From Amphiscolops sp. MND2022 (Eukaryota): a DNA stretch of 64,000 nucleotides. Position 1 is the stretch's first letter; the number at the start of each line of letters is the position of its first letter. The position numbers and the translations under genes were made by a program. Below the pieces are notes generated by a model. It ran no database searches. It was not told where the DNA came from and was given only the letters and a program-made list of their open reading frames with translations. Of this stretch, positions 8,775-62,190 are shown one piece after another. Location: assembly GCA_964187785.1 (NCBI GenBank), contig OZ076409.1:7380001-7444000 (forward strand). The letters run 5' to 3'.

Positions 8775-9356
8775 TTACCAAAAACTTTCACTCACTTTTA
8801 TTTACTCTTCAACTACATCTCGTCTTCATTTCTTCATCCTTCTTCGATGATGTCCCGACATGTGGTTGCTGATCACTCCTCCAAAGAACTACGCTGACAC
8901 TTCTCACTGCTTCACGCACACCCTCCAGATGGTCAACATCATCCATCGCCACTGGGTTCTTCCATCTTGACAACCTGCTTCTGCAAATGTCAACTGGTCA
9001 TCACAATCGTCACTTCAATGCTGACTTCTTTCAACTTGACTGGTCTTCTCACTTTGCGCCACTGAACTGGACTCAATTCACTTGTGACGAACTGAACTCG
9101 CCGCAATTCATTTGCCAATTTCAAACTATTTATTTGCCGTAAATGTCAAACTGTATCTTAATAACTTTAATGTAACTTTAACGTATAATCTTATTTATTG
9201 TTAATTCATAGTATAACCTTAATCATGCATAATCTTATCTAATCTTAATCTTGTATAATCGTACTATAATTACCCCCTCTGTTATTAAACCCTTACAAAA
9301 ATTCATCTATAATTACCTTTGTAACCGCAAAATATATCCCCAAATTATATCCCCAT

Positions 9357-24114: not shown

Positions 24115-25980
24115 AGACTGGCCATGGATGGAGAGCCAGACTGGTATGGATGGAAAACCAGACTGGCCATGGATGGAGAGCCAGACTGGAATGGATGGAA
24201 AACCAGACTGGCCATGGATGGAGAGCCAGACTGGCATGGATGGAAAACCAGGCTGGCCATGGATGGAGAGCCAGACTGGAATGGATGGAAAACCAGACTG
24301 GCCATGGAGGGAGAGCCAGACTGGCATGGATGGAAAACCAGGCTGGCCATGGATGGAGAGCCAGACTGGAATGGATGGAAAACCAGGCTGGCCATGGATG
24401 GAGAGCCAGACTGGAATGGATGGAAAACCAGACTGGCCATGGATGGAGAGCCAGACTGGTATGGATGGAAAACCAGGCTGGCCATGGAGGGAGAGCCAGA
24501 CTGGTATGGATGGAAAACCAGGCTGGCCATGGAGGGAGAGCCAGACTGGCATGGATGGAAAACCAGGCTGGCCATGGAGGGAGAGCCAGACTGGAATGGA
24601 TGGAAAACCAGGCTGGCCATGGATGGAGAGCCAGACTGGAATGGATGGAAAACCAGACTGGCCATGGATGGAGAGCCAGACTGGAATGGATGGAAAACCA
24701 GGCTGGCCATGGAGGGAGAGCCAGACTGGTATGGATGGAAAACCAGGCTGGCCATGGAGGGAGAGCCAGACTGGCATGGATGGAAAACCAGGCTGGCCAT
24801 GGATGGAGAGCCAGACTGGAATGGATGGAAAACCAGACTGGCCATGGATGGAGAGCCAGACTGGAATGGATGGAAAACCAGGCTGGCCATGGAGGGAGAG
24901 CCAGACTGGTATGGATGGAAAACCAGGCTGGCCATGGAGGGAGAGCCAGACTGGCATGGATGGAAAACCAGGCTGGCCATGGAGGGAGAGCCAGACTGGA
25001 ATGGATGGAAAACCAGGCTGGCCATGGATGGAGAGCCAGACTGGCATGGATGGAAAACCAGACTGGCCATGGATGGAGAGCCAGACTGGAATGGATGGAA
25101 AACCAGACTGGCCATGGAGGGAGAGCCAGACTGGTATGGATGGAAAACCAGGCTGGCCATGGAGGGAGAGCCAGACTGGCATGGATGGAAAACCAGACTG
25201 GCCATGGATGGAGAGCCAGACTGGTATGGATGGAAAACCAGGCTGGCCATGGAGGGAGAGCCAGACTGGTATGGATGGAAAACCAGACTGGCCATGGATG
25301 GAGAGCCAGACTGGAATGGATGGAAAACCAGACTGGCCATGGATGGAGAGCCAGACTGGTATGGATGGAAAACCAGGCTGGCCATGGAGGGAGAGCCAGA
25401 CTGGTATGGATGGAAAACCAGACTGGCCATGGATGGAGAGCCAGACTGGAATGGATGGAAAACCAGACTGGCCATGGATGGAGAGCCAGACTGGCATGGA
25501 TGGAAAACCAGGCTGGCCATGGATGGAGAGCCAGACTGGTATGGATGGAAGACCAGACTGGGTATGGATGGAAAACCAGACTGGCCATGGATGGAAAACC
25601 AGACTGGCCATGGATGGAGAGCCAGACTGGTATGGATGGAAAACCAGACTGGCCATGGATGGAGAGCCAGACTGGAATGGATGGAAAACCAGACTGGGTA
25701 TGGATGGAAAACCAGACTGGCCATGGATGGAGAGCCAGACTGGTATGGATGGAAGACCAGACTGGGTATGGATGGAGAGCCAGACTGGTATGGATGGAAA
25801 ACCAGACTGGCCATGGATGGAGAGCCAGACTGGAATGGATGGAAAACCAGACTGGCCATGGATGGAGAGCCAGACTGGTATGGATGGAAAACCAGGCTGG
25901 CCATGGATGGAGAGCCAGACTGGTATGGATGGAAGACCAGACTGTCCATGGATGGAAAACCAGACTGGCCATGGATGGAA
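24115..25980. repeat. 45-bp minisatellite (~41 units; two related 22/23-bp half-units)
   Basis: Unit GACTGGCCATGGA(T/G)GGAGAGCCAGACTGG(A/T/C)ATGGATGGAAAACCA; half-unit slips after 25550. Confidence 0.97.
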
Positions 25981-30600: not shown

Positions 30601-32044
30601 CACTTTCACCCTAACTCGAAAAGTCACATAGTGCCGAAAAAACACCGAACGTGGGGCCCTCTGGTCTTCCCTTTACTTTTGTAAGCATAAAATTCTGGTT
30701 TAGTGCAATCAAATGACACTATTTTAGGATCAATTGTGAGGTATTGCATCAAAAAAGACACGAAAACCACTTTCACCCTAACTCGAAAAGTCACATAGTG
30801 CCGAAAAAACACCGAACATGGGGCCCTCTGGTCTTCCCTTTACTTTTGTAAGCATAAAATTCTGGTTTAGTGCAATCAAATGACACTATTTTAGGATCAA
30901 TTGTGAGGTATTGCATCAAAAAAGACACGAAAACCACTTTCACCCTAACTCGAAAAGTCACATAGTGCCGAAAAAACACCGAACGTGGGGCCCTCTGGTC
31001 TTCCCTTTACTTTTGTAAGCATAAAATTCTGGTTTAGTGCAATCAAATGACACTATTTTAGGATCAATTGTGAGGTATTGCATCAAAAAAGACACGAAAA
31101 CCACTTTACCCTAACTCGAAAAGTCACATAGTGCCGGAAAAAAACACCGAGCGTGGGGCCCTCTTGTCTTTCCTTTACTTTTGTAAGCATAAAATTCTGG
31201 TTTAGTGCAATCAAATGACACTATTTTAGGATCAATTGTGAGGTATTGCATCAAAAAAGACACGAAAACCACTTTCACCCTAACTCGAAAAGTCACATAG
31301 TGCCGAAAAAACACCGAACGTGGGGCCCTCTGGTCTTTCCTTTACTTTTGTAAGCATAAAATTCTGGTTTAGTGCAATCAAATGACACTATTTTAGGATC
31401 AATTGTGAGGTATTGCATCAAAAAAGACACGAAAACCACTTTCACCCTAACTCGAAAAGTCACATAGTGCCGAAAAAACACCGAACGTGGGGCCCTCTGG
31501 TCTTCCCTTTACTTTTGTAAGCATAAAATTCTGGTTTAGTGCAATCAAATGACACTATTTTAGGATCAATTGTGAGGTATTGCATCAAAAAAGACACGAA
31601 AACCACTTTCACCCTAACTCGAAAAGTCACATAGTGCCGAAAAAACACCGAACGTGGGGCCTCTGGTCTTTCCTTTACTTTTGTAAGCATAAAATTCTGG
31701 TTTAGTGCAATCAAATGACACTATTTTAGGATCAATTGTGAGGTATTGCATCAAAAAAGACACGAAAACCACTTTCACCCTAACTCGAAAAGTCACATAG
31801 TGCCGAAAAAACACCGAGCGTGGGGCCCTCTTGTCTTTCCTTTACTTTTGTAAGCATAAAATTCTGGTTTAGTGCAATCAAATGACACTATTTTAGGATC
31901 AATTGTGAGGTATTGCATCAAAAAAGACACGAAAACCACTTTCACCCTAACTCGAAAAGTCACATAGTGCCGAAAAAACACCGAACGTGGGGCCCTCTGG
32001 TCTTTCCTTTACTTTTGTAAGCATAAAATTCTGGTTTAGTGCAA
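27691..32044. repeat. ~167-169 bp satellite array (~26 highly similar units)
   Basis: Unit ATCAAATGACACTATTTTAGGATCAATTGTGAGG...CTGGTTTAGTGCA repeats head-to-tail, with two interspersed subtypes. Confidence 0.98.
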
Positions 32045-45804: not shown

Positions 45805-46500
45805 TCAAAAATTCGAAAAACTAAAAAAAATGATGTTTTGGAATTTGCTCTTGTCATAACCTTCATCATTTTCACTTTGTTCAGAATCTTCCAAACATTC
45901 CATTTGATGATTTGAAAGGTTATTTGCTGTTGTGTTTAGTCTAGGAAAATTCTCTCTTGAGTCCTGGACCTGTTGGCTGAATTTACTTTTATGCCGTCCA
46001 TATGACCCAAGGTCCAAAGTTTGGTCCATAGGGACGTTTCTACTCGGATGCCGTCCATCTGACCGAAGGTCCAATTTCGCGTTCTTAGGCTCCCTATGAT
46101 TTACTATGACATTTTCGATGCTCGGTAGTATTTTTTCATCGATAGCGGAGTTTATTACCTCCATAATATGGGAATTTAGATCAGATTTCATTTCTTCCAA
46201 TTTCCTCGACATCTGTGAAGAAATTTCTGAACTAATTGCTCTACTAGTTTCTACTGTAATTTCACTATTCTCACTCAAATTTGTATTCAAAAGAGATCTA
46301 TAGTTGCTTTCTTCTTGTCTGAAACCTTGTTGCCGTCTACTTGACTCAGGGTCAATTTCTATTTGATCTACTGTGTTTTGGTCTCTAATCTCGCTGTTTG
46401 AGTAATTTCCAAGCATCACATCTAAATTTTCAATATCTGACATTACGTCAGACTGTCTAGAACGTTTCTCTCTTGCTTTCTGCTTTCTAGTTGAAGGCAT
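45805..46500 (-). CDS. Copy of gag N-terminus in the 3' LTR, ending in flanking DNA
   Basis: Matches gag up to ...NDEGYD, then continues with flank-derived KSKFQNIIFFSFSNF*. Confidence 0.7.
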   Translation of the reverse strand: MPSTRKQKAREKRSRQSDVMSDIENLDVMLGNYSNSEIRDQNTVDQIEIDPESSRRQQGFRQEESNYRSLLNTNLSENSEITVETSRAISSEISSQMSRKLEEMKSDLNSHIMEVINSAIDEKILPSIENVIVNHREPKNAKLDLRSDGRHPSRNVPMDQTLDLGSYGRHKSKFSQQVQDSRENFPRLNTTANNLSNHQMECLEDSEQSENDEGYDKSKFQNIIFFSFSNF

Positions 46501-47405
46501 TTTCAAGGAATGGATTTGATTCCAACAGTGAATTGATCAACAGTAACAAATCAAACAGTTTTGTATCGTAGCGTTTTCAATCAATGAATGAATGTCCCTT
46601 CTTATTACAAATTCCGCGTATATATAGTTTATACTGCATGACACGCAATATTTTGCGTGTCAGGAACTAAATTTAGGGTGATATCATTCTAAGTATAGCC
46701 CCGATTTCATTATTAGGTCACTAGTCCTAAAAATAGACTGAGGGTTTTGACATTACGTCACACAAATGAATAGATATAAATAGCATCAAACAAACAGTGG
46801 GTATCTTTACATGTATTCAAATTCAGGTTAAAATCAACCTTTCATGCATTGGTAACATCAATACTCAATGAAATTCTAAATTTGACCATGCGTCAGCATG
46901 ACTGCAATGATAGACTGGTACTTTACTCTGATTGGTCAACAAGTACTTGTGACCACACGTCGGTTTGACTGCGGTAGAGTACTAGTTAATTAACTAAGAA
47001 AAGTGTCTTAAGGTACTCTTTAAACACCGTTTAACAGCACTTGAGTTACTTTGCTAAGTATTGCGTCGTTAACTAAGTGATGTACTTTAGGTCCAGATTA
47101 ATTGCAAGTAATTTCATCAATGGGAAATTCTAAATAGTAACTAATCAATAATAGCAATTGAATAAATGCACAGATTAAATGCTGTCAGTTTGACCTTTGG
47201 TCTAAATAGTAACATCGAAATTGCATGTTTAGCGTTAATAATTCGGTCATTACATGCATGAAACAAATATTAAACTATCAAAATAAATGCTAAAGTTCGT
47301 TTCAGAGTTTGTTCTAGATAGGTAGTACCCCGGGGGCTGGTGGCGTCTCATTACCTTCTGGCATCATTTGGTATAGGATGCCGTCACAAGCGGCAGCTTG
47401 CGACA
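45852..47405 (-). repeat. 3' LTR (1554 bp)
   Basis: Near-identical to 60421-61975 (roughly 20 differences by eye); preceded by the PPT. Confidence 0.97.
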
Positions 47406-48138
47406 CTCCCCCCGGTACGAGTATGAACGTCCCTGCTTTCATACCTGCCTGGAATGCATCACGTCTAGCAATCCGCTGCTCATAAGTTTCTCCGGGAATG
47501 TGTGTCTGTTCAAGGTACCCCAATGTTATTTCTTCTTTAATGTCCGCAGATGATTTCCCACAGATCACGCAACCAGTTTGGGTCGTCTCATTCGGTTGTC
47601 CACAGCTTCCCCCGACGCTAATTCCTAGGCCAGTGATGTGTGAATTGCCATACCATGAATCTGCCGAACCGTGAGGTTGCGTAGGCTGGTAGGTGTCAAC
47701 TGAGGGTCCTTGGTCTTCTAGCGGAGGTGACCATGGGGAGTCCCGTATTGGGTTTAGCTGGCCACAATACGTTATTGGGTGGTCATCCGCATTTGAGCCA
47801 TAAGAGGTTCTTGGGGGGCCCCCAACACACCAATCGAGCAAGTCTTGTGACGGGTCCGTAAAAGTGCTCACTGATCCAATTAAATCGTCATCTGGTATGT
47901 TCAGGTCGTTCAAGCAATGAGCTAATTCTGTAGTCATTGCCCGACCCGCGGTGAGTTGTGGAGGGAAGGGTATATTTTCACGATAACAAGCAAGAACTTG
48001 TATGTCGTCGTCTGAATCTTGACCGTCAGGTCCGTCTGCAATGGACACTGAGTCCACTTCCATTTCTTCATCAGATGACTGGTACGAAAGGCTAACTAGA
48101 GGTCTATCGTGTTCCTCCAAAGAAAATTGTAGAGACAT
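47314..48138 (-). CDS. Accessory sense ORF (274 aa) overlapping PPT and U3
   Basis: Intact ORF with an acidic/Pro-rich N-terminus and a CVICG motif; the last ~30 codons lie in the LTR. Confidence 0.75.
   Translation of the reverse strand: MSLQFSLEEHDRPLVSLSYQSSDEEMEVDSVSIADGPDGQDSDDDIQVLACYRENIPFPPQLTAGRAMTTELAHCLNDLNIPDDDLIGSVSTFTDPSQDLLDWCVGGPPRTSYGSNADDHPITYCGQLNPIRDSPWSPPLEDQGPSVDTYQPTQPHGSADSWYGNSHITGLGISVGGSCGQPNETTQTGCVICGKSSADIKEEITLGYLEQTHIPGETYEQRIARRDAFQAGMKAGTFILVPGGVSQAAACDGILYQMMPEGNETPPAPGVLPI
47406..47413 (-). promoter_or_regulatory. Polypurine tract
   Basis: Minus strand GGGGGGAG lies immediately before the TGTCGC start of the 3' LTR. Confidence 0.85.
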
Positions 48139-48770
48139 TTCCTTGTAGAAACGTTGAATGAGAAGTTTTTAGCAATTGTGACAAACAAGGTTTGTAGCAA
48201 CTGAGTTTCACAAAGTTTGGGAGGCAAGTAATTTCCTGCCGCCTGCCGTCTTCTTGACTTCAGGTCCAACCCCAATTTTGGCGTGGGTTGGGCGCGGGGT
48301 TTTCCCCGAATCATAGTTTTCACATTTCCTATTTAGGTTTCGATTAAGAGCGGAGTCTCGAATAATTTTCGAGTAATTTATCTGCGAAGCTTGTTAATTG
48401 CCTCTTCAAGTTGTTTTACTTTATTCTTCAAAGGCGTCACTTGATAATCTAAGTGTTGTCTCTCTTAATTCTTCGTCAACAATTAACTTGAAAGACCGTC
48501 GGTCCTTTCGACGGCAGCAATGATGATAACCAATCAAATAACACTGGATTGATTGGTAAAATATGACGAATAATTTTATGAATGTGAAATGAAATAAGTA
48601 ATTTGATGCATTTTTAGGTGAAGAGAGAGTAATAAAGCGAAACAAGTAAAGAAGTCCATGAATATTTCACTGGCAGATTCCATACCATGAACTGTGAATA
48701 AAGAGCATGACTAAAGGAAAGGAGAAGATGGAAACATAAAAGAAAGTCTTACATGTAGCCACGACATCCA

Positions 48771-48835
48771 AATAATAATGATAGTAATAATAATATTAAT
48801 AATAATAATAATATCAATAATAATAATAATGATAA
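48771..48835. repeat. Imperfect (AAT)n microsatellite inside the element's intergenic region
   Basis: AATAATAATGATAGTAATAATAAT... run. Confidence 0.8.
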
Positions 48836-49453
48836 GAAGTCCGAGACTCTAAATTATTGGTAGGAGGTAGTAATTAGTCAAAAGAGTAGTTGTTGAGTAG
48901 AGGAAGTGAAATAAAGTACATTTGGTAACAAGTAACGTTGTGCCGTCATGATGACTCATCGTCCAATACGTTAGTTTTGGTTGAATATTATTTGATTGTG
49001 AACTAGTAATACATTGCCGTCAGGTTGACATTACGTCCACAGCTCTGTGCTTTTGCGTTAAAGACCATTGCCTTCATCAATTGTTTCCTCTTGTAGTATC
49101 ACTTGAGCTAGACTGTATTACCTAGTAATCAGGATAGTCTCTCTGACCTTGAGCAACAGATTGATTCAGTCTAAATTTCACCTTTTCCTAACCTCTCACC
49201 AGCATAAATTCACAAATTTTGCTTGCGTTAATTTGAATTGATATCCTCATATTCCACTTTTCTCCATTATTCGTCATCTAGAGGATCTTACTTCACTACA
49301 CGGCTCTCCAGACACAAATTCCGTGTGAAAGAATTTGGCAAATTCCTATTTGTCTGCTTTACTAAAAAATATCTGGGATTACGTTGTGAAGTCAAACAAA
49401 ATTCATCTTCAACAGCGTACAACAATTGGTCACATCAATTCTGTTGATCGAAT

Positions 49454-52400
49454 ATGGATTCAACATCAGGTTGGTTCTTTTGAAAGTGTTAAAATTAGGC
49501 TTGATCAGGGCTCATAATTCTAACTAAGTTACTTCCTCCATCGTGAAATGTTTGCTGTCAGCATGAACATTGTGTCAAAAGTATTTCCGGAAATATTTAT
49601 TAAGCGCGGCTAGATGGATTCATATTCAGGAAGTGAACCGCGTTTATTCATCTCATTCCGTTTAGGTGATGAATCTAATGGCCAACCTCTCCAATTGGTC
49701 GCTGAAGAAGAAAAAATGGATACAACTGATTCCTTTGTAACTGCCTCTTCCACTGTCAATAGTTTCCCCACCGTAAAGTCTATGACTCACGGCCAGAATG
49801 ATAATGACGACAAGTCAGATGATCCTGAGAGAGTAGTGGAAGACGATCCCAGTCTGGTGAGTGAGGGAGCAACTACAAGTTTGGGGAACATCACTGTGAC
49901 GCCTCAAGATCCCCCCATCACTATTTCCAACACAGAGGCCACTCCTCCTGCTATTACAGCAACTGGGAACGTTGAGAGTAGTAGCACTGATGAGAGTTGT
50001 GGGGCTTACATCGCTCGAAAGTGGGAACAATTGGGCTGTTCGCAAGAAACTGGTACATCGAGTCAGAACGACTGGAGCGGCAAGAAGTTTAGCGAGAGTA
50101 GCATGATGGAGCTGATGCCCGGTCAGTATTCCCCTACCCAAGATGAATTGGAGTTGGACGAAGCGCCAGAGGTTGCATTCCTGGACTCTCCCAAAGTACT
50201 ATTGAAAAGCAGTCTCAAGTCTCGATATGGGCCTTCCGAAGCAAAAGTTCAAAGACTGAGCGTGAAGTTGATTGCTCCAAGGACTGATTTGTCTGATGCC
50301 GCCGCCGGGACGGAAGGTCTCTCAAGTTCTGAAGCTGGATCCGAGTTCGCTGGGGAATTTGAAGCCCCCAGATTTGCAGATCCAACAGCGAACAGAGAAT
50401 CCGATAAGGTAACCAGTGACGCCGGGTTAGAGTCTGAAGGATTAGTCGGGTCCACAGTGGCTGATGTCCTGTTTGCACCTGCCCAAGCTAACGTATTTAG
50501 AGTGAGTGATGTAGCCAGCAACACGTCAGTAGATTTCCCTGAATCAGCACCTCGAGTCCCTCAACTGTCAGCTAGTAGTCGCGCTTTGATAAAGGAGTAT
50601 TTTGACGAGGCCACCCCCATCAGATTGTCTCCTGGGCATCCTACCCTTGCATTGAATGAGGGCCAAGTAAGTAGCTTGTTAAAAGTTGTAGCAGATGAAG
50701 CAGTTAAATCGTCGCTGAAAGCTATGGAAAACTTGGTACAACAAGCAAGCAGATTGAGCCTTGGAGCCCAGCGATCACCGACGGCCGTCATTCCGAGGTC
50801 GAAGAAAGCAATTTCTCAGACCAGTTATGCTGGGTCACAATCTGGTTTGTCATCAGGTCATACAAGCGATACCAGTGGGGGAATCAGAAGTGACGATGAT
50901 TTCGCCAGTATTGGATATGTTTACGAACATTCCGACCTGGAGAGTCAGCATTTTACTCCTCCCCCAACCGGTCCGTCTGGAAGCCGTCAAATTGACCTTG
51001 TGTCACCTGGAGCTTCAACCCAGACTGATAGCCCCGGAGGACAAACCTTGGCTGCGCTCAAAGCGGAGGCAGTATCGGAAAGGACTAAGTCTGGAACACG
51101 CCGAAGACAAAGCAAGAAGCCTACTCGTCCCAAAGGAGAGAGCAGACATCGGGTGCCTCGTGCCTGTAAAATCATGAAAGAGGCATATTTTAAAGGAATG
51201 GAGTGGACGAAGACGTTTGTAAGCGGACCAGTTGATCCTCGCTGGAATCCGTACAAATTTTATTGCCAAATCTGTAAAGGCAATATATCAATTTATGGAC
51301 GCGGCGCTCGAGAGATCCTTCGTCACCACTCCACCGAACGTCACCTTCGTAAGGATCAGAGGTGGCGTTACGAGCATCTTGCCATAGAAGACCCCGTGAG
51401 TGGAAGGAAAAAACACCATGTCAGAGGGAAGGACGGACGACTTCTCACCCCCTACGAGCTTCAATTAGAATTACCCAAGTTCATTGGGGTGGAACTCGTG
51501 GACATCGGAGAGAAGCTTCCGTTCTACGAAGAATACGCTCAAGGAGTTGACTACATGGCTTCTTCATCCGACAACCGTGTTCGAGTCCAGATGTCAGTTC
51601 TGGGTAACTACTTGCGAAGCTACGGCGATATCAGCACCCTGAGGAACCTCTGGCGGGATGTTGGGGTCGTTGTAAACCATCAGTCGCTCTTTACTGACTT
51701 TGACTGGAGTAAAGAACGGCTATCAGTAAGTACTTTCCTGCCGTTAAATCGACTTAAGGTCTTCCCCAGCCCAGTAATCGTTACCTTTGGCCTGCATTAA
51801 ATATGATGTTTTCATTCTAGGCTCTCTTCCACCACCTGTTCCTACAAAGTATACATGACATTGGAGACCATGTAGTTGCAGCGGGCGAGTATTCGCTGGA
51901 ATTTATCAAGCAAGGAGTCTTCCTGTTAGTGTTCATTCGTTTCTGGAGAAAGGACGAGCTCTGCCGAGTTTTCCTGAAGCGAACCGGCCGGGTCCTGGGA
52001 CAGTCGGCAGCCGAATTAAGCCTCATAAGTGACGTTTTGGCAGTTTTCTCACTCGGCCCCAACATTGTCAGTTGCTCCGGTTGCAGCCTGGAAACGATCC
52101 AGAAGGTAAATAGTTCTCCTTACAGTAAGCATGGACTCCAACACCCTCTCAGATTTGAGGACTTTTCAATCGCGCGGCTAATGCATAAAGAAAGCTATAG
52201 TGTCTTTGGACGCATCGACTTCCACTCCGTTCTCAAGTATCTAATCATCTTCTTGGGGGGAAGCCTCGACTGCGATTGGACCTTGATGACGCCAGTGTTG
52301 GCAAAGGTTAGACTCTCTCATTTTAGGCTTTTAGTCCACGGCTCTTTCAAAGGTACTAATAAACTTGTTGTGTTCAGGCTGTTCGTACTTGCCAAATTGA

Positions 52401-53866
52401 ACTCGCCACTCTCCCAACACTGTGTCAGGAGCTGCTTGCTAACTGGACAGATGTGACCAAATTCCTGAATGAACATGCACCTCCGCATGAAATGATGGGA
52501 GTGAGAAAACAAGTAAGTCGCTGCCGTCCCGTTGACCTTCAGTCTAATTTCAGTTGTTTCAATTTTCCTTTTGTTGTTCTAGCCTCAGAACCTAGAGCGA
52601 GCCATGATCCATGATGAGTTGTTTCTGTGCCGGCTTGAACTCTTCTATCGCTTGGTCAGGGATTGTAAGTATAATCCACCCGTAGTACGTATCATTTCTT
52701 GAGCTTTCGACAATCATAGTGAACGCAAGTGTTTAGGTACCACGAGCTTTGTGCCACATCTGACTGAACGACGGGATCATGGATTCCATATCTACAGGCA
52801 GTTATGCCAGTACCTCTTCAAGCTAGGAAGACGCTGTATCAAGCCGAAAAGTCTGCCACAGGAAACAGATCTGTCAGGGATTTTGGGTATTGCTATGTCG
52901 GATGCCAAAGCCTTAGCCATTCCCGATTTCATCGCCCGATCGAAGCTCGACCAACGACTGAACGTGGCTTGCAAAGTCAAGGCAGAAAAGGAATTGAGCG
53001 ACAAGAAGGGCAATCGGGCTAATCTTCCGAAACTCGTGAAAGAGAACAAAGAAGAGTTTGGGCGACTTGGGAGGAGCTACGTTGCCTACCTTTTCCATGC
53101 TGCCCAAAACAACTTACAACTGACCTCCACCATTGTGAAAGGATTGGGCTCCTTTGATCTGGACATTATGTATCGTTCTCCCCTTAGCCAGGCGCTGAAT
53201 TGTTTCAAGCATCTTTTCCGTAGCTTTCATCTTCGCGGTTACTTTCAAGCCGACGCGGAGTCCATCTATACAGAGGAATATTTATCATTCCTTGACGAGA
53301 TCCGCAAAGAGATGCCTGATCTGAGCCAACCAAGGGTCATAATCCAGGATGCAGTGACTCACATTTCCAATCATGTTGCCTTAGAGTCACGACCCCATCT
53401 TGCTCGGATCTTTAAGCTGAGCTGTTTATGTTTGGATGAGAGGTATGTTAGTATGCCTACCGTGAAGTTTGGTCCAGTGCGGACAGATGACCCCAAAAGT
53501 AAACTTATTGACACCATTCTGCCCGTTCAATCCTTCTTTATTAACGTGGGGCGGAGCATAGATGCCTTCACTTCAGCTTCTTCAATAGCTAAGTTCCTTT
53601 CCTTCGAACCTACGTTCGGGAATACTGCCTTCTCTGACATGTATAGCCCCTGGGACAGCCTCAATCGCTTCGATCGCTCTGAAATTCTTGCTGCTTTACG
53701 TCCGGGCTCAATGAAGAGGAAGACTGAAAGTCGAAAACTGAGGTTTAAAGATCTGAAAAGCAACAGCAGTTCCAAGAGTCTTCCGCCAGCCAGTGCCAAA
53801 GGATCGCCTGTGAGGCGTCAATCAGACAGCGAGTTGCCCTCTAGTTCATCTATTAAAGACACTTAA
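49454..53866 (+). CDS. Antisense spliced gene (~1300 aa), zinc-finger protein probably derived from a hAT-type transposase
   Basis: Predicted GT-AG introns at 51726-51820, 52307-52377, 52513-52582, 52665-52736 (and possibly 49470-49665) all join the ORF pieces in frame. Zinc finger FYCQICKGNISIYGRGAREILRHHSTERH. Confidence 0.85.
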
Positions 53867-54093
53867 TTGTACTATTTGTACATTTGTTTTTCGTTGTATT
53901 TATGTATCTTTCGTTTGTTGGCAGATTTGAGTTTGTTTATTTTATCGTTATTTGAAGTCTGTTTGTACCGTTGTGTCATTATGATGCCTGTGTTTGATCC
54001 ATTATTGTGGACTACAAGTCAGTCGAGGCCCATAAAAAGATTATTGGAGAGTCAAACGGTGTTGAGTCGGGCCAGTGAATATACATGTTCTAA

Positions 54094-57000
54094 CTAGTAC
54101 CTGTATTCGTCAGTGAAGTTGGGGGTAGGATTGGGGCGTAGGTTATATCTCCCTCCCCTAGGACTTTCATTTTCTACAACACAATCATCAGTTTCTTCAA
54201 TTAATACATCGGGCACGGTTGTATTGTTCCCCCCGGAAGTTGAAATTTCTGAATTTTCATCTCTAGGAAAGTCCTGATCGATCAATTCATCGTTTTTAGA
54301 TTCGGTACTTTGTTGCCGTCTAGCGGACTGACGGTCCTCATTGTGTGCGTTTCTTGAGTACTGCTCCGTATTATCAGCCTCAGTATTTGTTTGCCGTCGC
54401 GCGGACCGAAGGTCCGCTTCGTTTATTTCGTTTGAGCGTGAGTCACTATCAGTATCATCAGCGTGAGCGGCGTCAGTATTTGTTTGCCGTCGCGTGGACC
54501 GTAGGTCCAAATCTGTGATTATAGCATCTTGTTCATCGGAATTGGTAGGGAGTTCATTAGTAACAGTCCGATTTTCAGAATTAGGAGGGAAATCGTCAAA
54601 ATTGGTTTCCCATGAAATGATGTACAGATCATCTTGTGGAATAATAATTTCATCGTCTGCTTGTAAATTTCCTTCGGGGCGAATGTCTTGTGGGGTAGTA
54701 TTTGGAGTGTATTTTCTAAGGCGTATTCGGTGTAATATCTGCGTTTTGTTAGTACTAAGTTTGCGAACAATATAGTTGTCGTTAGGTAAAACTTTTTCAA
54801 TGACGTACGGTCCGATCCAACGAAATTCACGAAAAGGAATTTTAGAGCCTTGATGGTCAGCTAGAGGTTGTAAAATGAAGCAAAAATCTCCTTGTTGTAG
54901 AGGAGCTGCTTTAGCCTTTCGGTCATAATATTCCTTGTACTTTAAATATGATTGCATGATGTTTTTCTTTGTTTGATCAATTAATATTTGCGTACGTCTT
55001 TGAAATTCTTCAGCAAAATCAGTCGTTGGAGTGATCTTTGGGTTAGGGTTTAATCCAAACCGATGGTCTAAGATATTATAGGGTACTCTTCCGTGAAAAA
55101 ATCGGGTGGGTTCGCATCCAAGACTTGAATGATAGGTCGTGTTATAATTAAGGACAGCCAATGGGAGATATTTGTGCCATTGACGCCTGTATTCACCTGA
55201 TGCCATTTTAAGGTTGCCCTTAAGGCTGGCATGAGTGCGTTCTAGTTTGCCTATCGTCTGAGGATGCTTTGTGGTCGCGCACCGAAGGTGAATTCCTAAA
55301 ATTTTGGTATTTTCTTCTAGTAGTTTGGACGTAAAGGCAGTGCCTTTGTCGGTGATCAGCGTAGTCGGCAAGTAGGAATGTTTTGTCATGATATCAATAA
55401 TGACCTTTGCCGTATTGACGACCGAAGCGTCCGTTACTGGGTAGGCAAAAAGATATCTTGAAAACACGTCCAGAGCCGTTATGACATTTTCGTAACCTCC
55501 ACTTGGGGGTAAGTTGGGCAGAATGTCAATTTGTAAAGCATCTTCTGGGCCAAGATCCCATTCAGGTAAATTGAGTAATTCAGGTGTTATGGATGCATTG
55601 TTGATTCTTTTGTCTTTTATACAAATTTCACACCCTTGGACCCACTTTTTGACAATTTTTACAATTCCAGGAAAGTAGTATTTTCGTCGAATTTCGTGCA
55701 GCATTTTTGAGATTCCCGGGTGTTTGTTCGCGGAACCATGTAGTGATTGAAGTAATTCTGTGACTAGATGTTTCGGTAATAATGCTTGGCGGAATTGGAC
55801 ACTGCCTGTTTCATCGTAGTAGTCTCTGAAAATGATGTCATCATGTACGGACAGACGGTCAATTTGACGGCAGTAATGTCGGTAGCGCGAATCTTGCTGT
55901 AAGATGGTTTCAGAGTATTCTTCTTTTTGCAGTTTGAGTCGTAATTGATGCAAGATAAGGTCGTTCTGTTGTTCTATAGCCATGGTGGTTGGTTTTGCCA
56001 GTTTTTGTATATTTTGAGTTTGGAAGTGTGTATTATCATGAGTGCTAAGATGATCTAACAAAATATCAGGAGGTTGATTCATTGGGTTTGACCTGGCGTC
56101 TTGTTTGCGTTTCCAGATTTGTTCTTCTGTTTCTTCATCATCGTCCGTATAGAAGATCTGTTCCTCTTCAGTAACTCCCGCTGATTGGACGTTGAGTTCA
56201 ATGGGTGTGGTGGAAATATCTTCTCGTATCTGGAGTATGAGTTTTTCTTTGGGACAGATTTCTAGACGCGACAAGTAGTCAGCGGCAGTATTGTTTTTGC
56301 CAGGTATATGGGCTATTGTGAAACTGAATTGCATAACGTAGTCACACGCGTTCCACAATGTAGGTGGAATGATTTTTGTTTGAAAAGAGCGAGTGACTGA
56401 CTTGTTGTCTGTTAGTATTATCACCGGTTTCGGGGTCCCCCAGAAGATATGGCCAAACTCTTTGAATGCAAAGAATATTGCTAGGAATTCTTTCGCATAA
56501 ATGGTTATCTTCAGTTGGGCAGGACTAAAGGTCTTGGATCCATATGCTACAGGTGCGAAGGCTTTTCGCGTCGAAGTATATTTTTCCATCGGATCGTCCT
56601 CGATGAGAACTGCATAACCTGCTGCCGAAAAACTAGCGTCTGTCATTAGGGCTATCTGTTTATCGGGTAGAGGTTGTTTGAGTGCCAGTTCACAACATCG
56701 GTCAAGAGCTTTGTTGATCTCGGTGAATTTTTCTAACAGATCGGGTGTCACCATGACTTTGGCATCACTTTTCAATAACTTGAAAAACGGTGTGAGTTTT
56801 TCTGAGAGCCTTGGGATGTAGTTACGGTATTAGTTCAAGAATCCCAAGTGTCTTTGAAGTGCTTTCTTGGATTTAGGGATTTTGGTCTTTTCCAAGAAAT
56901 TCTGGACCCTGGGTCGTTGTGGCCGCACCCCTTCAGGAGTGATAGTGCGTCCCAGGAAGTCAATTTCCTTGGCTCCGAAATGGCACTTGTGCATCGTTAG

Positions 57001-59270
57001 TTTGAGACCAGCGGTCCTGATGCACTGGAACGTTGCTCGAAGGTTGTTGATGAGCTGAGTAGCGTCGTTTGCAGCTATCCCAATATCATCTACGTACTGA
57101 GCACATTGGTCAGCTTTTATCACTTTATCCAGGTATTCGCGCATAAAGCTCGAGAATGCGGACAGCGCTCTGCTGTGACCTTGGGCAAGTCTCCGATAGG
57201 CAAAGGTTCTGCTGGCAAAATTGAATGCCAGCATCTCGATTGACATCTGGTCAGCCATCTGAAGGCAGTGGTATGCTTGAGAACAATCAAGTTTGCAAAA
57301 TAGTCGTTTGCCTGCCATGTGCTGCGCAGCATCCGTTAGTGTGCTGACAGGATGGTTGTTGTTGATATAATCGTCGGAAATCAGGTTGTTGATCTTTCGG
57401 AGGTCGACCAGGAGTCGAAGTTTGCCGTTAGGTTTTTTCTGGGCACAAATGGGACTTGCATATTTGGAAAATGGGAGAGTTGTTATAATCCCATATCGAT
57501 GTAGTAGGGCTAGTTCTACAAGGATATCTTCTTTGAGGTTGATAGGAGTAGGTAAGCTTTGACTATAGGCAGGAGAGTCATCTTTAGGGGTCAAAGTGAC
57601 CTTGAAGTCCTCGTTCATACCTATATCAAAGCGGTGTCGTGCAAATATATCGTGAAATTCAACAAGTAATTCTTCAATTTGGGCAATTTCGGCTGGGTTT
57701 AGCGTCGAGTCTGTCCAGTCGAAATTAGCAAGAAATTGTTTCCGCGATTCAGGGTCATCCTGGGGGTTGAGTTTCTCTAAATCTTTGAGATTTCGTAGTT
57801 CTCTAAGGATTCTTTGTTGTATTGGTGTGTGAGTTTGGGGATCTCCTGGTTCTTCTGGAGTAGGGAACCAATAGTTCTCACTATCATCGCTAGTTTTCGG
57901 AGATTTGATCAGGCTACTGGCATAATAGGCAGCATGTTCCGGGTTATCCTTCAAAAGGTGCCAAGTGGTCACAGGATCAATGGGTTTGACGTATTTCATC
58001 TGCTCTGGTGTGAGGACAGAGAAATTGGCAATGTGCGCACCTCTTTTGAGGGTGTACGGTTGGTCAGTGAAGTTGTTGACATGGATTGATACCTGACCTT
58101 GGGTCAGTGTGACTAGAGCGGCGCAGAAGGTTATATCACCATCTTCTGCAAGGTCGTTGCTCGGTTGAAGAATTCCAGTGACGTTTGTGTCGTCATATAG
58201 TTGTGAGAACATGGAAACCATATGTCTGTCGTTGGGGGGAATAGTTATGTCCTCCCGTGCACAGATAGGTTCCATGACGTTAGTGTACTTGTGGTCAGCT
58301 GTTTTCAATTGCATGGAGAAGAAAGGGAAGTTTAAAACTCCTTGACGCATGTCCAGTATGGTATTGTTCCGTTGCAGGAACGAGAGACCAATTAACGGAC
58401 TTGTGAGTTTTTCCATAACAATGAAGATCTCATGGAAATCGATGTCCCCGACCTCGAATTTGAGTTCAACGGTGCTCTTTGGAGTCTCCAGCTGTCCATT
58501 GGCTACCATAATCTGGAAGTTGGGTGCCGGGCCCTCTTTAATTATTGACTGAGGGGCTAACAATCGGATTTTACGTAGATCAGCTTCTGGGATAGCGCTA
58601 GATAGGGCTCCCGTGTCTACAAGGCCATCTAATGTTAGTTCGCCAAAATCCATGGGGAAGTAGAGCATTCGTCGTTTGTATTTGAGTCCCAAATTGGTCG
58701 TCAACGGGACGTAGTCGGGTTCACTGTTTCGTGAGATCAGCGTATTCAGAAAGCGTTCTTCCACTGTTGCCGTCAATGTGACCAAAGGTCCATTGTGTGG
58801 AAGTTGTTCGGTTATTTCCTCCTGGATTGGTGAATTGGTTTAATCCACACATTTTGCCAGGGGTCAACAGAGGCCGTGGATAGTTTTGTGTTCAGCATCT
58901 GATCAATGTGGGGTTGATCGTGTTCGATATCTGCAATGTTTTTGGTAAAGTTTTTGTAGAAGTGTAGCTGATGTTGGTTGTAGATTTGAATGTCCCAATA
59001 GGGGTCGAATCCGAAGTCCGGTTCAGGATAATATGGGTTGTAGTTATCGATTAGGGGAAGGGGGCGAATGGTCGTAGTATTAGAGTGCTGTCTGTCGGAC
59101 TGAAGGTCCGGGTTGTGTAAGTGAGTAGGCAAATGCTTCACCTGCTGCTGCCAGTCAGCTGATGAATTTTCTTTAATGGAAGAGTAATATTCTGTATAAT
59201 ATATATTAGGAGGATCAGATATTATATATTGTCTGATACGTAATTTTTCATTAATATGGAGTCGTGGCAA
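54094..59270 (-). pseudogene. pol: pol: protease, dUTPase-like spacer, RT, RNase H, integrase (frame break near 58810, in-frame stop at 56830)
   Basis: LVDTGA, LDCSQAYH, YVDD, MTDAS, AKEFLAI, TDNKS, ADYLSR, HHCC, LQID, ITDKG and GKLER motifs. Confidence 0.97.
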
Positions 59271-59272
59271 AT

Positions 59273-61069
59273 CTAGTTTTTTGAGTTTTTAAGGATAGAA
59301 GTAGTGGGTTTATTGGTAGGGTCATCACGACTACTGGTCGTGTCGTCATCCTTTGGACTATCCAATTTGAGGTTCTTGGGCTTGAGGTGGGCTCCAGCGC
59401 CTTTCCAACATCTCTCCGCCGGGTGATTGGTTTTGTCACAAGTCGGGCACTTTGGGTACTCTTTTTTGGTACTCGAGCCTTCATTGCGTTTTTGCTCTTC
59501 CTTTCGTTTTAGTTTTCGGCAATCGTCTTTGACATGTCCAGGTTTTTTGCAGTAGTTGCAAGTTATTCCTGGGTCAATGCCTGATGAAAGGAGTCCTTGA
59601 CCCGGTCGTGTAGCTGTCGGGGCTGTTGACATTGTGGGAACGGGAATGTCGTCGCCTTCCTCAAGTCCATTCAACTCCAGCTCTCGTTCGAGATGAGTGA
59701 CAATTTCTTCATAGGTGGCATTCTCTAATCGCGCCATGTTGACTGAACGTTTGAGTTTCGGTGGGAGTTTTGCGTATAGCAGACTGTCAATCATGGCTTG
59801 TGCGTGCTCGCCAAAGGCTTTTTCGGCGCCCTGATTGAGTTCCTCGAGAAAATCGGGCAATTTCATTGTGTTTGGGTCAAATACCAATTTGTGCCATTTA
59901 TGTTTGGCAGTTGCCTGGGATTCAGGTTTGACATATTTCCTACGAAACACAGCCAGTACGTCTTCTAAGGTTTGTCTATTTGCTGACCTGATGTTGCGGA
60001 AGGTTTGCAGGGCATTTTTGCGCAACAGTGAATGAAAGTGATTAATTTTCATTGCTTTCGTCATATCGGGTTGCATCTTTATCACCGTGTGAAAAAGGTC
60101 TTCAAACAGTTCGAATTTTTCAGATTTGCCGTCAAATGTAAGTGTGGCAGTTTTGACTGGTCGTACCATCAGTGTTTGTGCTGATGATTTGTTGTTCATT
60201 CCCATAATGACATCGGCAAGTCTGTTTATGGGGTCTAATGGTGTTTGGGGCTGCATTTCCCGGTCATTGATAGGGTTTGAGGGAATCTGTGCCGGGAGAT
60301 TGGTATCTAATGTGTCATCGTTGACGCATTGTTGATGGGGAATTTTGTTTCTGGACTGCGTGGGACGTCCGGTCAGAAATTCAGGGACTACATGTGGAGT
60401 AAGGTTGGCTCCTGTCACCATGTCATAACCTTCATCATTTTCACTTTGTCCAGAATCTTCCAAACATTCCATTTGATGATTTGAAAGGTTATTTGCTGTT
60501 GTGTTTAGTCTAGGAAAATTCTCTCTTGAGTCCTGGACCTGTTGGCTGAATTTACTTTTATGCCGTCCATATGACCCAAGGTCCAAAGTCTGGTCCATAG
60601 GGACGTTTCTACTCGGATGCCGTCCATCTGACCGAAGGTCCAATTTCGCGTTCTTAGGCTCCCTATGATTTACTATGACATTTTCGATGCTCGGTAGTAT
60701 TTTTTCATCGATAGCGGAGTTTATTACCTCCATAATATGGGAATTTAGATCAGATTTCATTTCTTCCAATTTTCTCGACATCTGTGAAGAAATTTCTGAA
60801 CTAATTGCTCCACTAGTTTCTACTGTAATTTCACTATTCTCACTCAAATTTGTATTCAAAAGAGATCTATAGTTGCTTTCTTCTTGCCTGAAACCTTGTT
60901 GCCGTCTACTTGACTCAGGGTCAATTTCTATTTGATCTACTGTGTTTTGGTCTCTAATTTCGCTGTTTGAGTAATTTCCAAGCATCACATCTAAATTTTC
61001 AATATCTGACATTACGTCAGACTGTCTAGAACGTTTCTCTCTTGCTTTCTGCTTTCTAGTTGAAGGCAT
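59273..61069 (-). CDS. gag: Gag with two CCHC zinc knuckles; ATG at 61069 inside the 5' LTR
   Basis: TFDGKSEKF capsid-like start, CNYCKKPGHVKDDC and CPTCDKTNHPAERC. Confidence 0.95.
   Translation of the reverse strand: MPSTRKQKAREKRSRQSDVMSDIENLDVMLGNYSNSEIRDQNTVDQIEIDPESSRRQQGFRQEESNYRSLLNTNLSENSEITVETSGAISSEISSQMSRKLEEMKSDLNSHIMEVINSAIDEKILPSIENVIVNHREPKNAKLDLRSDGRHPSRNVPMDQTLDLGSYGRHKSKFSQQVQDSRENFPRLNTTANNLSNHQMECLEDSGQSENDEGYDMVTGANLTPHVVPEFLTGRPTQSRNKIPHQQCVNDDTLDTNLPAQIPSNPINDREMQPQTPLDPINRLADVIMGMNNKSSAQTLMVRPVKTATLTFDGKSEKFELFEDLFHTVIKMQPDMTKAMKINHFHSLLRKNALQTFRNIRSANRQTLEDVLAVFRRKYVKPESQATAKHKWHKLVFDPNTMKLPDFLEELNQGAEKAFGEHAQAMIDSLLYAKLPPKLKRSVNMARLENATYEEIVTHLERELELNGLEEGDDIPVPTMSTAPTATRPGQGLLSSGIDPGITCNYCKKPGHVKDDCRKLKRKEEQKRNEGSSTKKEYPKCPTCDKTNHPAERCWKGAGAHLKPKNLKLDSPKDDDTTSSRDDPTNKPTTSILKNSKN
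59276..59282 (-). promoter_or_regulatory. -1 ribosomal frameshift heptamer A AAA AAC
   Basis: Immediately precedes the gag TAG; the -1 frame is the open 58812-59270 frame. Confidence 0.8.
60407..60420 (-). promoter_or_regulatory. Primer binding site
   Basis: TGGTGACAGGAGCC directly after the 5' LTR CA. Resembles the complement of a tRNA-Leu 3' end with a mismatch; primer identity uncertain. Confidence 0.75.
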
Positions 61070-61975
61070 TTTCAAGGAATGGATTTGATTCCAACAGTGA
61101 ATTAATCAACAGTAACAAATCAAACAGTTTTGTATCGTAGCGTTTTCAATCAATGAATGAATGTGTTTTGTTTATTACAAATTCCGCGTATATATAGTTT
61201 ATACTGCATGACACGCAATATTTTGCGTGTCAGGAACTAAATTTAGGGTGATATCATTCTAAATATAGCCCCGATTTCATTATTAGTTCACTAGTTCTAA
61301 AAATAGACTGAGGGTTTTGACATTACGTCACACAAATGAATAGATATAAATAGCATCAAACAAACAGTGGGTATCTTTACATGTATTCAAATTCAGGTTA
61401 AAATCAACCTTTCATGCATTGGTAACATCAATACTCAATGAAATTCTAAATTTGACCATGCGTCAGCATGACTGCAATGATAGACTGGTACTTTACTCTG
61501 ATTGGTCAACAAGTACTTGTGACCACACGTCGGTTTGACTGCAGTAGAGTACTAGTTAAATAACTAAGAAAAGTGTCTTAAGGTACTCTTTAAACACCGT
61601 TTAACAGCACTTGAGTTACTTTGCTAAGTATTGCGTCGTTAACTAAGTGATGTACTTTAGGTCCAGATTAATTGCAAGTAGTTTCATCAATGGGAAATTC
61701 TAAATAGTAACAAATCAATAATAGCAATTGAATAAATGCACAGATTAAATGCTGTCAGTTTGACCTTTGGTCTAAATAGTAACATCGAAATTGCATGTTT
61801 AGCGTTAATAATTCGGTCATTACATGCATGAAACAAATATTAAACTATCAGAATAAATGCTAAAGTTCGTTTCAGAGTTTGTTCTAGATAGGTAGTACCC
61901 CGGGGGCTGGTGGCGTCTCATTACCTTCTGGCATCATTTGGTATAGGATGCCGTCACAAGCGGCAGCTTGCGACA
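60421..61975 (-). repeat. 5' LTR (1555 bp)
   Basis: Matches 45852-47405; identity stops exactly at the TG and CA termini. Confidence 0.97.
61150..61200 (-). promoter_or_regulatory. Putative LTR core promoter and poly(A) signal
   Basis: Minus strand CTATATATA, then AATAAA, then an initiator-like TCATTCATT about 30 nt after the TATA. Confidence 0.5.
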
Positions 61976-61990
61976 TACACTAACGATTGA

Positions 61991-62190
61991 NNNNNNNNNN
62001 NNNNNNNNNNNNNNNNNNNNNNNNNNNNNNNNNNNNNNNNNNNNNNNNNNNNNNNNNNNNNNNNNNNNNNNNNNNNNNNNNNNNNNNNNNNNNNNNNNNN
62101 NNNNNNNNNNNNNNNNNNNNNNNNNNNNNNNNNNNNNNNNNNNNNNNNNNNNNNNNNNNNNNNNNNNNNNNNNNNNNNNNNNNNNNNNNN
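61991..62190. other. Assembly gap (200 N)
   Basis: Run of N. Confidence 1.

Follow-up and report, generated by a model that had tools for sequence, protein, structure and literature searches.

A Ty3/Gypsy LTR retrotransposon of an animal genome with an intron-containing antisense gene between pol and the 3' LTR

The window analysed here, a stretch of 64,000 nucleotides, contains a 16,124-bp Ty3/Gypsy element on the − strand, within which an antisense gene is located. The 3' LTR was placed by self-BLAST and direct reading at 45852..47405 (− strand, 1554 bp) and the 5' LTR lies at 60421..61975 (− strand); both have TG...CA ends, they are 98.7% identical over 1555 columns in self-BLAST, and the 5' LTR is followed by an assembly gap (N) at 61991-62190. 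Directly abutting the 3' LTR we read a polypurine tract (GGGGGGAG on the − strand, 47406..47413), while a PBS-like TGG... stretch, also read from the sequence, occupies 60403..60420 (− strand) immediately after the 5' LTR. The gag frame (59273..61105, − strand), the first 228 codons of which fall within the 5' LTR, carries DUF1759 and a CCHC knuckle, and pol (54094..58839, − strand) encodes, according to Pfam, a protease, a dUTPase-like domain, reverse transcriptase, RNase H and integrase, with the family matches in the order gag-asp_proteas, RVT_1, RT_RNaseH, RT_RNaseH_2, Integrase_H2C2 and rve. By its LTRs, PBS-like stretch, polypurine tract, domain order and target duplication the element is a Ty3/Gypsy (Metaviridae-type) LTR retrotransposon, the Ty3/Gypsy assignment being based on the Pfam domain order and the Gypsy-type RT_RNaseH and Integrase_H2C2 signatures. 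Perfect 5-bp target duplications surround the whole unit in all four of the other full-length (16.1-kb) copies, and the same terminal base marks the 3' LTR end in at least 30 other genomic copies; at the window copy, where the 5' flank amounts to 15 nt before the assembly gap, a matching duplication is absent. A preliminary description of this DNA had placed the antisense gene between pol and the 3' LTR, a position upheld by the LTR mapping, and had reported two lesions in pol. Comparison with two other copies bears out both: pol here has a stop in frame at 56830-56832 and has lost one base near 58826.

Two further features separate the gene from the 3' LTR. The first is an additional sense-strand open reading frame, ORF3 (47314..48168, − strand, 284 codons from stop to stop), which crosses the polypurine tract into the 3' LTR and has no Pfam family. 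It is open in three other copies at 91-98% identity, and its dN/dS values of 0.08 and 0.11 (21 synonymous vs. 6 and 8 non-synonymous changes) mark it as a selected frame. The second is a spacer (48169..49453) between the divergently oriented ORF3 and antisense gene, in which the promoter of the latter would be situated. The spacer is about 87% identical to that of copies in which the ORF3 protein shows 97-98% identity, and the interval 49400-49700 is conserved even between subfamilies (0.79-0.87 vs. approximately 0.6 nearby). An Rfam scan of the window returned no match.

Our analysis confirms that the LTR retrotransposon contains an intron-containing antisense gene. On the + strand, five exons joined by four GT-AG introns give a frame of 3945 nt, that is 1314 codons and a stop, with 0 internal stops, in agreement with the uninterrupted product of ~1300 amino acids described before. 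Exon 1 (49614..51725, + strand, 704 codons) encodes an acidic Ser/Thr-rich N-terminus, a basic patch and a C2H2/BED-like zinc finger (C551, C554, H571); exon 2 (51821..52306, + strand) contributes 162 codons, exon 3 (52378..52512, + strand) 45 codons and exon 4 (52583..52664, + strand) 82 nt, and exon 5 (52737..53866, + strand, 376 codons plus stop) encodes an all-helical C-terminal domain. The intervening introns, all on the + strand, are intron 1 (51726..51820, 95 nt, GTAAGT...TAG, phase 0), intron 2 (52307..52377, 71 nt, GTTAGA...CAG, phase 0), which has TACTAAT at 52354-52360, intron 3 (52513..52582, 70 nt, GTAAGT...TAG, phase 0) and intron 4 (52665..52736, 72 nt, GTAAGT...TAG, phase 1). 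The coordinates given in the preliminary description and its number, lengths and phases of the introns were all reproduced, and its three GTAAGT donors and single TACTAAT motif were seen again. Further, ORF-called homologues extending beyond the end of exon 1 show V in 44/44 rows followed by S in 91%, as expected if a GTNAGT donor is read through.

The 5' end of the gene can be drawn in two ways. A first mini-exon of 16 nt (49454..49469, + strand, ATG...CAG) may be followed by a 5' intron of 160 nt (49470..49629, + strand), which in turn contains an alternative start, ATG 49614; in other copies the corresponding lengths are 160, 157, 158, 151, 167 and 94 nt. ATG 49454 and the GT donor at 49470 (GTTGGT) are each kept in 27/27 loci that have the region, and 28/28 loci retain both the AG at 49628-49629 and ATG 49614. 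Since the routes starting at ATG 49454 and at ATG 49614 yield a nearly identical N-terminus, this fifth intron, earlier called probable, is here regarded as possible. No canonical AATAAA or ATTAAA occurs on the + strand within 740 nt past the stop codon. Transcription of the gene, its promoter, its splice junctions and its start codon are described here as predicted from the DNA.

The same genome contains at least 13 other copies at 97-99% identity and at least 23 at about 70%; among 1793 candidates, about 40 were scored. Across 28 other loci the donor GT is kept in 111/112 intron copies and the acceptor AG likewise in 111/112. All four introns are retained in four diverged subfamilies, with lengths by subfamily of 95/94/91, 71/68/76, 70/69/70 and 72/76/71 nt, differences that are not multiples of three, and the spliced frame nevertheless stays open; at locus L034, in-frame stops lie inside the introns. 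Retention of GT and AG together with an open frame despite the length differences between subfamilies indicates that the intron pattern is more than chance, and in all copies examined the cassette and its splice sites proved to be shared, as a stably carried gene would lead one to expect. Of 26 other full-span loci, 10 have a completely open spliced frame and 4 more have one stop in it, and each of the six loci examined in subfamily C has at least one stop or frameshift.

The exons are under clear constraint. Between subfamilies synonymous differences are saturated (pS 0.79-0.83) vs. a pN of about 0.10-0.165, 5 to 8 times lower, and the inner introns differ by a p-distance of 0.46-0.51. Within subfamilies exon dN/dS is 0.15-0.36, far below the value of 1 named beforehand as the limit for a selected protein. 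We therefore rejected the idea of passive, decaying cargo, given the purifying selection and the conserved intron boundaries. The same data bear on the proposal that the gene is real but that its antisense transcript matters rather than its protein, by pairing with the genomic RNA and feeding small-RNA regulation. Antisense transcription acting via double-stranded RNA has been raised for plant elements (in a passage of PMC7264820), but here selection acts at the protein level, with pN 5 to 8 times below pS and both splice sites and frame kept, and since a function of the RNA alone would not preserve 1314 codons we consider this proposal very improbable.

With respect to its surroundings, the cassette is tightly linked to the element. 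The pol C-terminus adjoins it, antisense, in 28/30 loci, both exceptions being truncated copies, and four of four further pol copies, picked because they were absent from the first list, carry the cassette too. A neighbouring host gene outside the element was likewise rejected as a source of the exons, as the gene lies between the LTRs and the cassette is linked to pol. The same cassette adjoins different pol lineages, and one pol lineage can carry different cassettes. In subfamily B the pol C-terminus is 96-97% identical to that of the window, and the cassette protein just 65-83%; conversely, at L003, L008 and L011 the cassette is 98-99% identical and the adjoining pol merely 71-82%. The block of divergence runs from about 49650-49700 to about 53900-54000. 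Judged from these identities, the cassette is a module that has been exchanged by recombination among element lineages.

Such swapping of the cassette as a block between lineages is also what might result if a nested DNA transposon, or some other mobile element in its own right, had inserted into a single Gypsy copy, and weak BED / C2H2_12 leads for the finger (0.88) point the same way, as such fingers occur in hAT-type transposases. No inverted repeats flank 49454-53866, however, the only pairs found lying at 40.7-43.4 kb, and neither the window protein nor the sets of 65 and 70 homologues gave a transposase domain in Pfam scans. Moreover, the cassette was always found adjoining pol, with neither orientation nor distance varying, and the target duplications flank the whole LTR element rather than the cassette. 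The preliminary description had named a cassette unique to this copy and bounded by its own inverted repeats or target duplication as the sign of a nested transposon; we found a multi-copy cassette bounded by neither, and consider an insertion of that kind extremely improbable.

Another origin, in which one element lineage acquired a host gene or gene fragment by transduction or recombination and carries it as passive cargo without function for the element, draws on documented cases of LTR elements taking up cellular sequences (discussed in PMC11963269 and PMC7264820) and on the lack of resemblance of the protein to any known transposon or virus protein. Against it speak the purifying selection within subfamilies and across those with saturated synonymous sites, the intron boundaries kept in four subfamilies, the presence of the cassette in 32/32 pol-linked loci examined, and the fact that none of the scored matches (about 40 of 1793 candidates) is a copy outside an element. 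We judge such capture improbable. Cumulatively, the shared splice sites, the low dN/dS, and the LTRs, primer-binding and polypurine sites and 5-bp duplications of the whole unit support the earlier view of a stably carried, real multi-exon gene, and the locus very probably represents a genuine element-borne accessory gene of ~1300 residues and five (possibly six) exons, antisense between pol and the 3' LTR of an animal Ty3/Gypsy family.

The predicted product begins with an acidic region, continues with a basic patch resembling an NLS and a single C2H2/BED-like zinc finger, and ends in a domain that is all helical. Residues 1-500 have a pI of 4.6 and residues 501-704 a pI of 9.7, the acidic N-terminus is probably disordered, and among aligned rows with a residue in the respective column 96-100% retain C551, C554 and H571. 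At E <= 0.001, exon 1 has 180 unnamed homologues and exon 5 has 430 representative ones; 48 homologues were found for exon 2, and all ten homologue clusters looked up were unnamed ENA ORF calls. The product defines a large unnamed family of hundreds of clusters for which there is no Pfam model. No Pfam family exceeded its threshold for the window exons and ORF3 (E up to 0.1), nor for 70 exon-5 homologues or 65 exon-1/2 homologues (E up to 1). Below threshold, zf-C2H2_ZN292 gave 18.2 bits with the window protein vs. a cut-off of 27, and matched 29/65 homologues with a best E of 2.4e-4. In the ESM Atlas, BED / C2H2_12 led for the finger region at 0.88, below the 0.9 line of the tool, and helical-repeat families led for exon 5, all values being below 0.9.

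Neither by sequence nor by fold was there a convincing match among solved structures. The AlphaFold model of exon 5 has a mean pLDDT of 80.8, yet had no Foldseek match at E <= 0.001, and its best VIA-align hit (Z 6.0) was to helical hairpins. The P0312 model (844 aa, mean pLDDT 54.3) reached 82-98 in the zinc-finger part (10-residue blocks) and 30-56 in the exon-2 part; its best fold match (Z 6.3) was a helical hairpin outside the conserved core, a search by which the zinc-finger and exon-2 parts were hardly probed. There was no Pfam match to an RNase H-like DDE catalytic domain or a hAT dimerisation domain, the exon-2 model being of low confidence (pLDDT 30-56). Sequence profile searches of the PDB gave a best E of 0.096, to a designed protein, with profile A1 and E > 2 with profile A2, and a JGI metagenome scan with A2 gave 92 pattern matches, 0 of them confirmed; A1 contained no stretch of sufficient conservation for such a scan. 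No longer, unsplit forms turned up among proteins of 1233-3520 aa, which is weak evidence.

Introns that lie antisense to the genomic RNA of a retrotransposon are not recognised in that RNA and therefore survive retrotransposition. In the present element the genomic RNA would be antisense to the gene, so that the introns would go unrecognised and be copied intact in each round of retrotransposition. The gene itself would most likely have an internal promoter, lying in the 1.3-kb spacer that precedes 49454, and its transcript would be spliced and translated. The element would thus be a natural user of the principle that an antisense intron survives retrotransposition.

Known systems offer partial parallels. 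The HBZ gene of HTLV/STLV exists in a spliced form, encodes a bZIP nuclear regulator and is transcribed from a start in the 3' LTR. Both HBZ and the gene described here encode a protein in antisense within the 3' portion of an element that replicates by reverse transcription; they differ in host and element family, about 2 kb separate the first conserved ATG here from the 3' LTR, and no bZIP family is among the Pfam matches of the window protein. The Tor elements of the tunicate Oikopleura dioica are, like the present one, animal LTR-type elements with an extra gene beyond gag and pol, but that gene is env-like, has an internal promoter and lies on the sense strand, whereas ours is antisense.

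The closest parallel in position comes from plants, where certain Ty3/Gypsy elements, among them Retand (TRP28 proteins), maize Grande (gene23) and rice RIRE2, harbour additional ORFs (aORF-3R) in antisense orientation downstream of pol and before the 3' LTR, as described in passages of PMC11963269 and PMC7264820. According to the same passages these ORFs occur in all or most copies of a family, they are suspected, though not proven, to regulate in the nucleus or by binding DNA, and a promoter of its own is reported for the Grande gene; deltaretrovirus antisense genes are mentioned as well (in a passage of PMC11963269). The present gene shares with aORF-3R the position, the antisense orientation and the presence in most copies, but it resides in an animal host, its product of ~1300 residues is much larger, and its coding sequence is interrupted by four introns that are conserved. 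Neither PMC11963269 nor PMC7264820 uses the word 'intron' in its main text, and TRP28 / Transposase_28 (PF04195) is absent from the Pfam matches of the window exons and of the 70 exon-5 and 65 exon-1/2 homologues. From fungi, brtn is an antisense additional gene of the Boty-like Ty3/Gypsy elements of Botrytis cinerea (Zhao et al. 2011, Virology 417:248, as cited in a passage of PMC8365987), likened to ours by description in that both are extra antisense genes inside a Gypsy element.

Full-text word searches of open-access papers, with Repbase-type reports outside their scope, gave no animal precedent, and this hints that such genes may be rare in animal Gypsy elements. The host genome of the window holds 11 full-length Metazoa_SRP genes (168-218 bits), which identify it as animal. 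Up to now the antisense arrangement has been known chiefly from elements of plants and of one fungal family and from a few retroviruses; here it is met in an animal.

What the product does can be proposed tentatively. Considering its composition, its one zinc finger and the analogy with the antisense genes of plant elements and with HBZ of deltaretroviruses, on which the proposal is built, it may be a trans-acting nuclear factor of the element that binds nucleic acids and might regulate the element's transcription or counter host silencing, a role we hold to be plausible at somewhat less than even likelihood. A broader reading appears rather doubtful: the cassette could be the first to be described from a class of accessory genes that is widespread in animal retroelements, namely large antisense, intron-keeping zinc-finger genes shuffled among Gypsy lineages and used for the control of their own chromatin or for escape from silencing. 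If true, together with the selected sense-strand ORF3, it would make these 'complex' retroelements with a divergent internal promoter and a regulatory sophistication comparable to that of complex retroviruses.

The evolutionary evidence at this locus is unusually clean, comprising four conserved introns, saturated synonymous sites with little non-synonymous change, numerous young copies that are intact and have target duplications, and exchange of the gene between pol lineages, and the element offers a tractable system for studying what antisense accessory genes do for the elements that carry them. The locus also holds a warning for genome annotation, in that multi-exon gene models of 'host-like' appearance can be transposon cargo.

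From 49.6 to 53.9 kb, the + strand carries four stop-to-stop ORF pieces (49614–51800, 51821–52456, 52363–52614 and 52703–53866) distributed over three frames. A preliminary description had proposed that such fragments are joined by four short GT-AG introns into a stop-free product of about 1300 residues, and both sequence reading and scripted splicing recovered exactly the claimed sizes and phases: intron 1 (51726–51820, 95 nt, GTAAGT...TAG, phase 0), intron 2 (52307–52377, 71 nt, GTTAGA...CAG, phase 0, with TACTAAT 17 nt ahead of the acceptor), intron 3 (52513–52582, 70 nt, GTAAGT...TAG, phase 0) and intron 4 (52665–52736, 72 nt, GTAAGT...TAG, phase 1). After in-silico splicing the frame is open over 1314 codons with no internal stop; the longest ORF on the − strand across this region has at most 127 codons.

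The only long repeat in the self-comparison of the window pairs 45852–47405 with 60421–61975 (98.7% over 1555 columns). Read on the − strand, both repeats have TG...CA ends; a TGG... primer-binding-like stretch comes directly after the upstream one (60421–61975), and a polypurine run directly before the downstream one. With a single exception, other genomic copies of the 45–49.5 kb region start at window position 45851–45853. We therefore conclude that the repeats are LTRs, 1554 bp in length, and that they bound an element of 16,124 bp on the − strand. Between them, on the same strand, Pfam searches identified a gag frame (DUF1759, CCHC) and a pol with protease, dUTPase-like, RT, RNase H and integrase domains, in which RT_RNaseH and Integrase_H2C2 are Gypsy-type signatures. 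The dUTPase-like domain (PF00692, 26.3 bits, cut-off 22) lies between protease and RT at about 58020–58265 (residues 192–273 of a 669-aa pol ORF). Comparison with two other copies confirmed two lesions in this pol, an in-frame stop (56830–56832) and a one-base deletion near 58826. The antisense gene (49454/49614–53866, + strand; hereafter the cassette) is placed as first described: 228 nt separate it from the pol terminus on one side, and about 2 kb from the 3′ LTR on the other. The host is an animal, the same 1.07-Gb assembly containing 11 full-length Metazoa_SRP genes (168–218 bits). The gag frame is also open for 228 codons within the LTR (60421–61105), through the primer-binding site and on into gag, and a matching frame of 243 codons is open in the 3′ LTR (45852–46536); either the LTR contains the start of gag or it has a coding stretch of its own.

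Alignment of 29 other loci against the window revealed the introns in 28, with the whole gene spanned by 26. Three subfamilies are visible: A (the window and L002–L015), with introns of 95, 71, 70 and 72 nt; B (L017–L024), with 94, 68, 69 and 76 nt; and C (L016, L025–L030), with about 91, 76, 70 and 71 nt. L033 and L034 represent a fourth. Donor GT and acceptor AG are each conserved at 111 of 112 sites in the 28 intron-bearing loci. Despite intron length differences between subfamilies that are not multiples of three, 10 of these 26 full-span loci have a wholly open spliced frame (1314 codons in L002, L004, L006, L009, L010 and L012, 1310 in L005, and 1301 in L017, L020 and L022), and four more carry a single stop. 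In L034 there are in-frame stops within the introns, and the adjoining exons align as protein. Unnamed ORF-called homologues from other assemblies that extend beyond the end of exon 1 continue with V in 44 of 44 rows and then with S in 91%, as expected from read-through of a GTNAGT donor. Single introns are missing from more distant homologues: the exon 1/2 junction is uninterrupted in P0312, the exon 2/3 junction in P0350, and exons 3–5 in P0038 and P0125.

Substitutions in the projected coding sequences, counted by the Nei-Gojobori method, gave a saturated pS of 0.79–0.83 and a pN of 0.155–0.165 between subfamilies (0.10–0.11 for residues 501–1314 only), and the interior of the introns diverges by 0.46–0.51. 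Within subfamilies dN/dS is 0.15–0.36, well below 1 (window vs. L010 or L012, 0.15; L017 vs. L020, 0.19). These substitution patterns indicate that the protein is under purifying selection in propagating lineages. Its homologues, all unnamed, number 430 for exon 5, 180 for exon 1 and 48 for exon 2. Residues 1–500 are acidic and Ser/Thr-rich (pI 4.6), and residues 501–704 are basic (pI 9.7), with a RRRQSKKPTRPK-type patch and a finger whose C551, C554 and H571 are conserved in 96–100% of rows aligned at these positions. The sole Pfam match is a below-threshold C2H2 finger (18.2 bits, cut-off 27), present in 29 of 65 homologues, and the model of P0312 is confident only near this finger. The last exon was modelled as an all-helical domain (mean pLDDT 80.8, above 90 at residues 11–230), for which comparison with solved structures returned no convincing match.

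At least 13 other genomic copies match the 4.4-kb cassette at 97–99%, and at least 23 matches were found at 69–72%, both counts being lower bounds from 38 scored candidates of 1793. The C-terminus of pol lies beside the cassette in the same antisense layout at 28 of 30 loci, the exceptions (L013, L014) being truncated or interrupted copies. Likewise, in all four further pol copies, picked because they were absent from the cassette list, a cassette homologue occupies the expected place (59–75% protein identity). L014 and L015 (G000:C4:83809023-83819026) are the two halves, about 5.5 kb apart, of a single cassette copy, presumably split by a later insertion. The alternative that the cassette is a unit of its own, bounded by its own terminal inverted repeats and target duplication, finds no inverted repeats at the cassette borders, and perfect 5-bp target duplications lie outside the LTRs in 4/4 other full-length copies, two of which carry cassette A with its spliced frame intact. 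The whole 16-kb unit, cassette included, therefore integrates. At the window copy no matching target duplication was found, its 5′ flank comprising just 15 nt between the 5′ LTR and a 200-N assembly gap (61976–62190); its ends may reflect a mis-join or inter-copy recombination.

The cassette and its backbone have not always travelled together. Subfamily B is 0.92–1.00 identical to the window up to about 49600 and 0.93 from 54000, vs. 0.25–0.82 per 100 nt at about 49700–53900; as protein, the pol C-terminus is 96–97% and the cassette 65–83% identical. Conversely, L003, L008 and L011 carry cassettes 98–99% like that of the window next to pol C-termini only 82%, 71% and 72% identical, and their DNA homology ends 18 nt short of the stop codon. 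Such mismatches in both directions show that the cassette is exchanged between element lineages, with breakpoints near the limits of the coding sequence. Cumulatively, a multi-exon gene under purifying selection resides in a mobile LTR element, in antisense to the genomic RNA, and has been exchanged between lineages; conserved introns, selection on the protein and whole units flanked by target duplications bear out the original interpretation, in which expression from the gene's own promoter is the predicted part.

At the 5′ end, ATG 49454 followed by 13 nt and a GTTGGT donor is conserved at 27 of 27 loci, and AG 49628–49629 with ATG 49614 at 28 of 28. Joining 49469 to 49630 keeps the frame and gives an N-terminus differing by one residue from that of the 49614 start. 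A fifth intron (49470–49629) is accordingly possible. Near-duplicate 16-nt stretches (ATGGATTCA..CAG, the next base G in each), conserved in all subfamilies, stand at the possible mini-exon (49454–49469) and at the main start codon (49614–49629). Across the interval 49400–49700, conservation stays at 0.79–0.87 even when subfamily A is compared with C (neighbouring sequence about 0.6), which suggests a cis-acting start region.

The element carries an additional sense-strand frame, ORF3 (48168–47314, − strand, 284 codons), which continues past the polypurine tract to enter the 3′ LTR and matches no Pfam family. Three other copies also keep it open, and it is under purifying selection, with dN/dS of 0.08 and 0.11 (21 synonymous vs. 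6 and 8 non-synonymous changes); the spacer beside it is only about 87% identical. ORF3 and the antisense gene diverge across this 1.3-kb spacer (48169–49453), where a divergent internal promoter may lie.

Since introns antisense to genomic RNA are not spliced from it, they survive reverse transcription. We propose that the antisense gene would be transcribed from an internal promoter and its transcript spliced, and that the product would localise to the nucleus and act in trans for the element, regulating transcription or silencing.

Our literature search found no animal precedent for such a gene, though one may still exist. According to PMC11963269 and PMC7264820, the plant elements Retand, Grande and RIRE2 are characterised by an antisense ORF placed between pol and the 3′ LTR, that of most Retand elements encoding a TRP28 domain; passages in PMC8365987 (citing Zhao et al. 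2011) and PMC11963269 describe, respectively, the antisense gene brtn of Botrytis Boty-like elements and antisense genes of deltaretroviruses. The present gene has the same layout. It differs in its animal host, in a product that lacks TRP28 and comes from a large unnamed protein family, and in its four conserved introns.

Elsewhere in the window, 27692–32044 holds a tandem satellite (period about 167–168 nt from self-BLAST offsets, copies about 98% alike), and 24115–25980 a tandem array (period about 45 nt, copies 90–95% alike). The 24–26 kb bin has a GC content of 0.54 with strong G and A skew, and the first 10 kb (1–10000) show GC skew that is strongly negative, at −0.28 to −0.49 in 2-kb bins.
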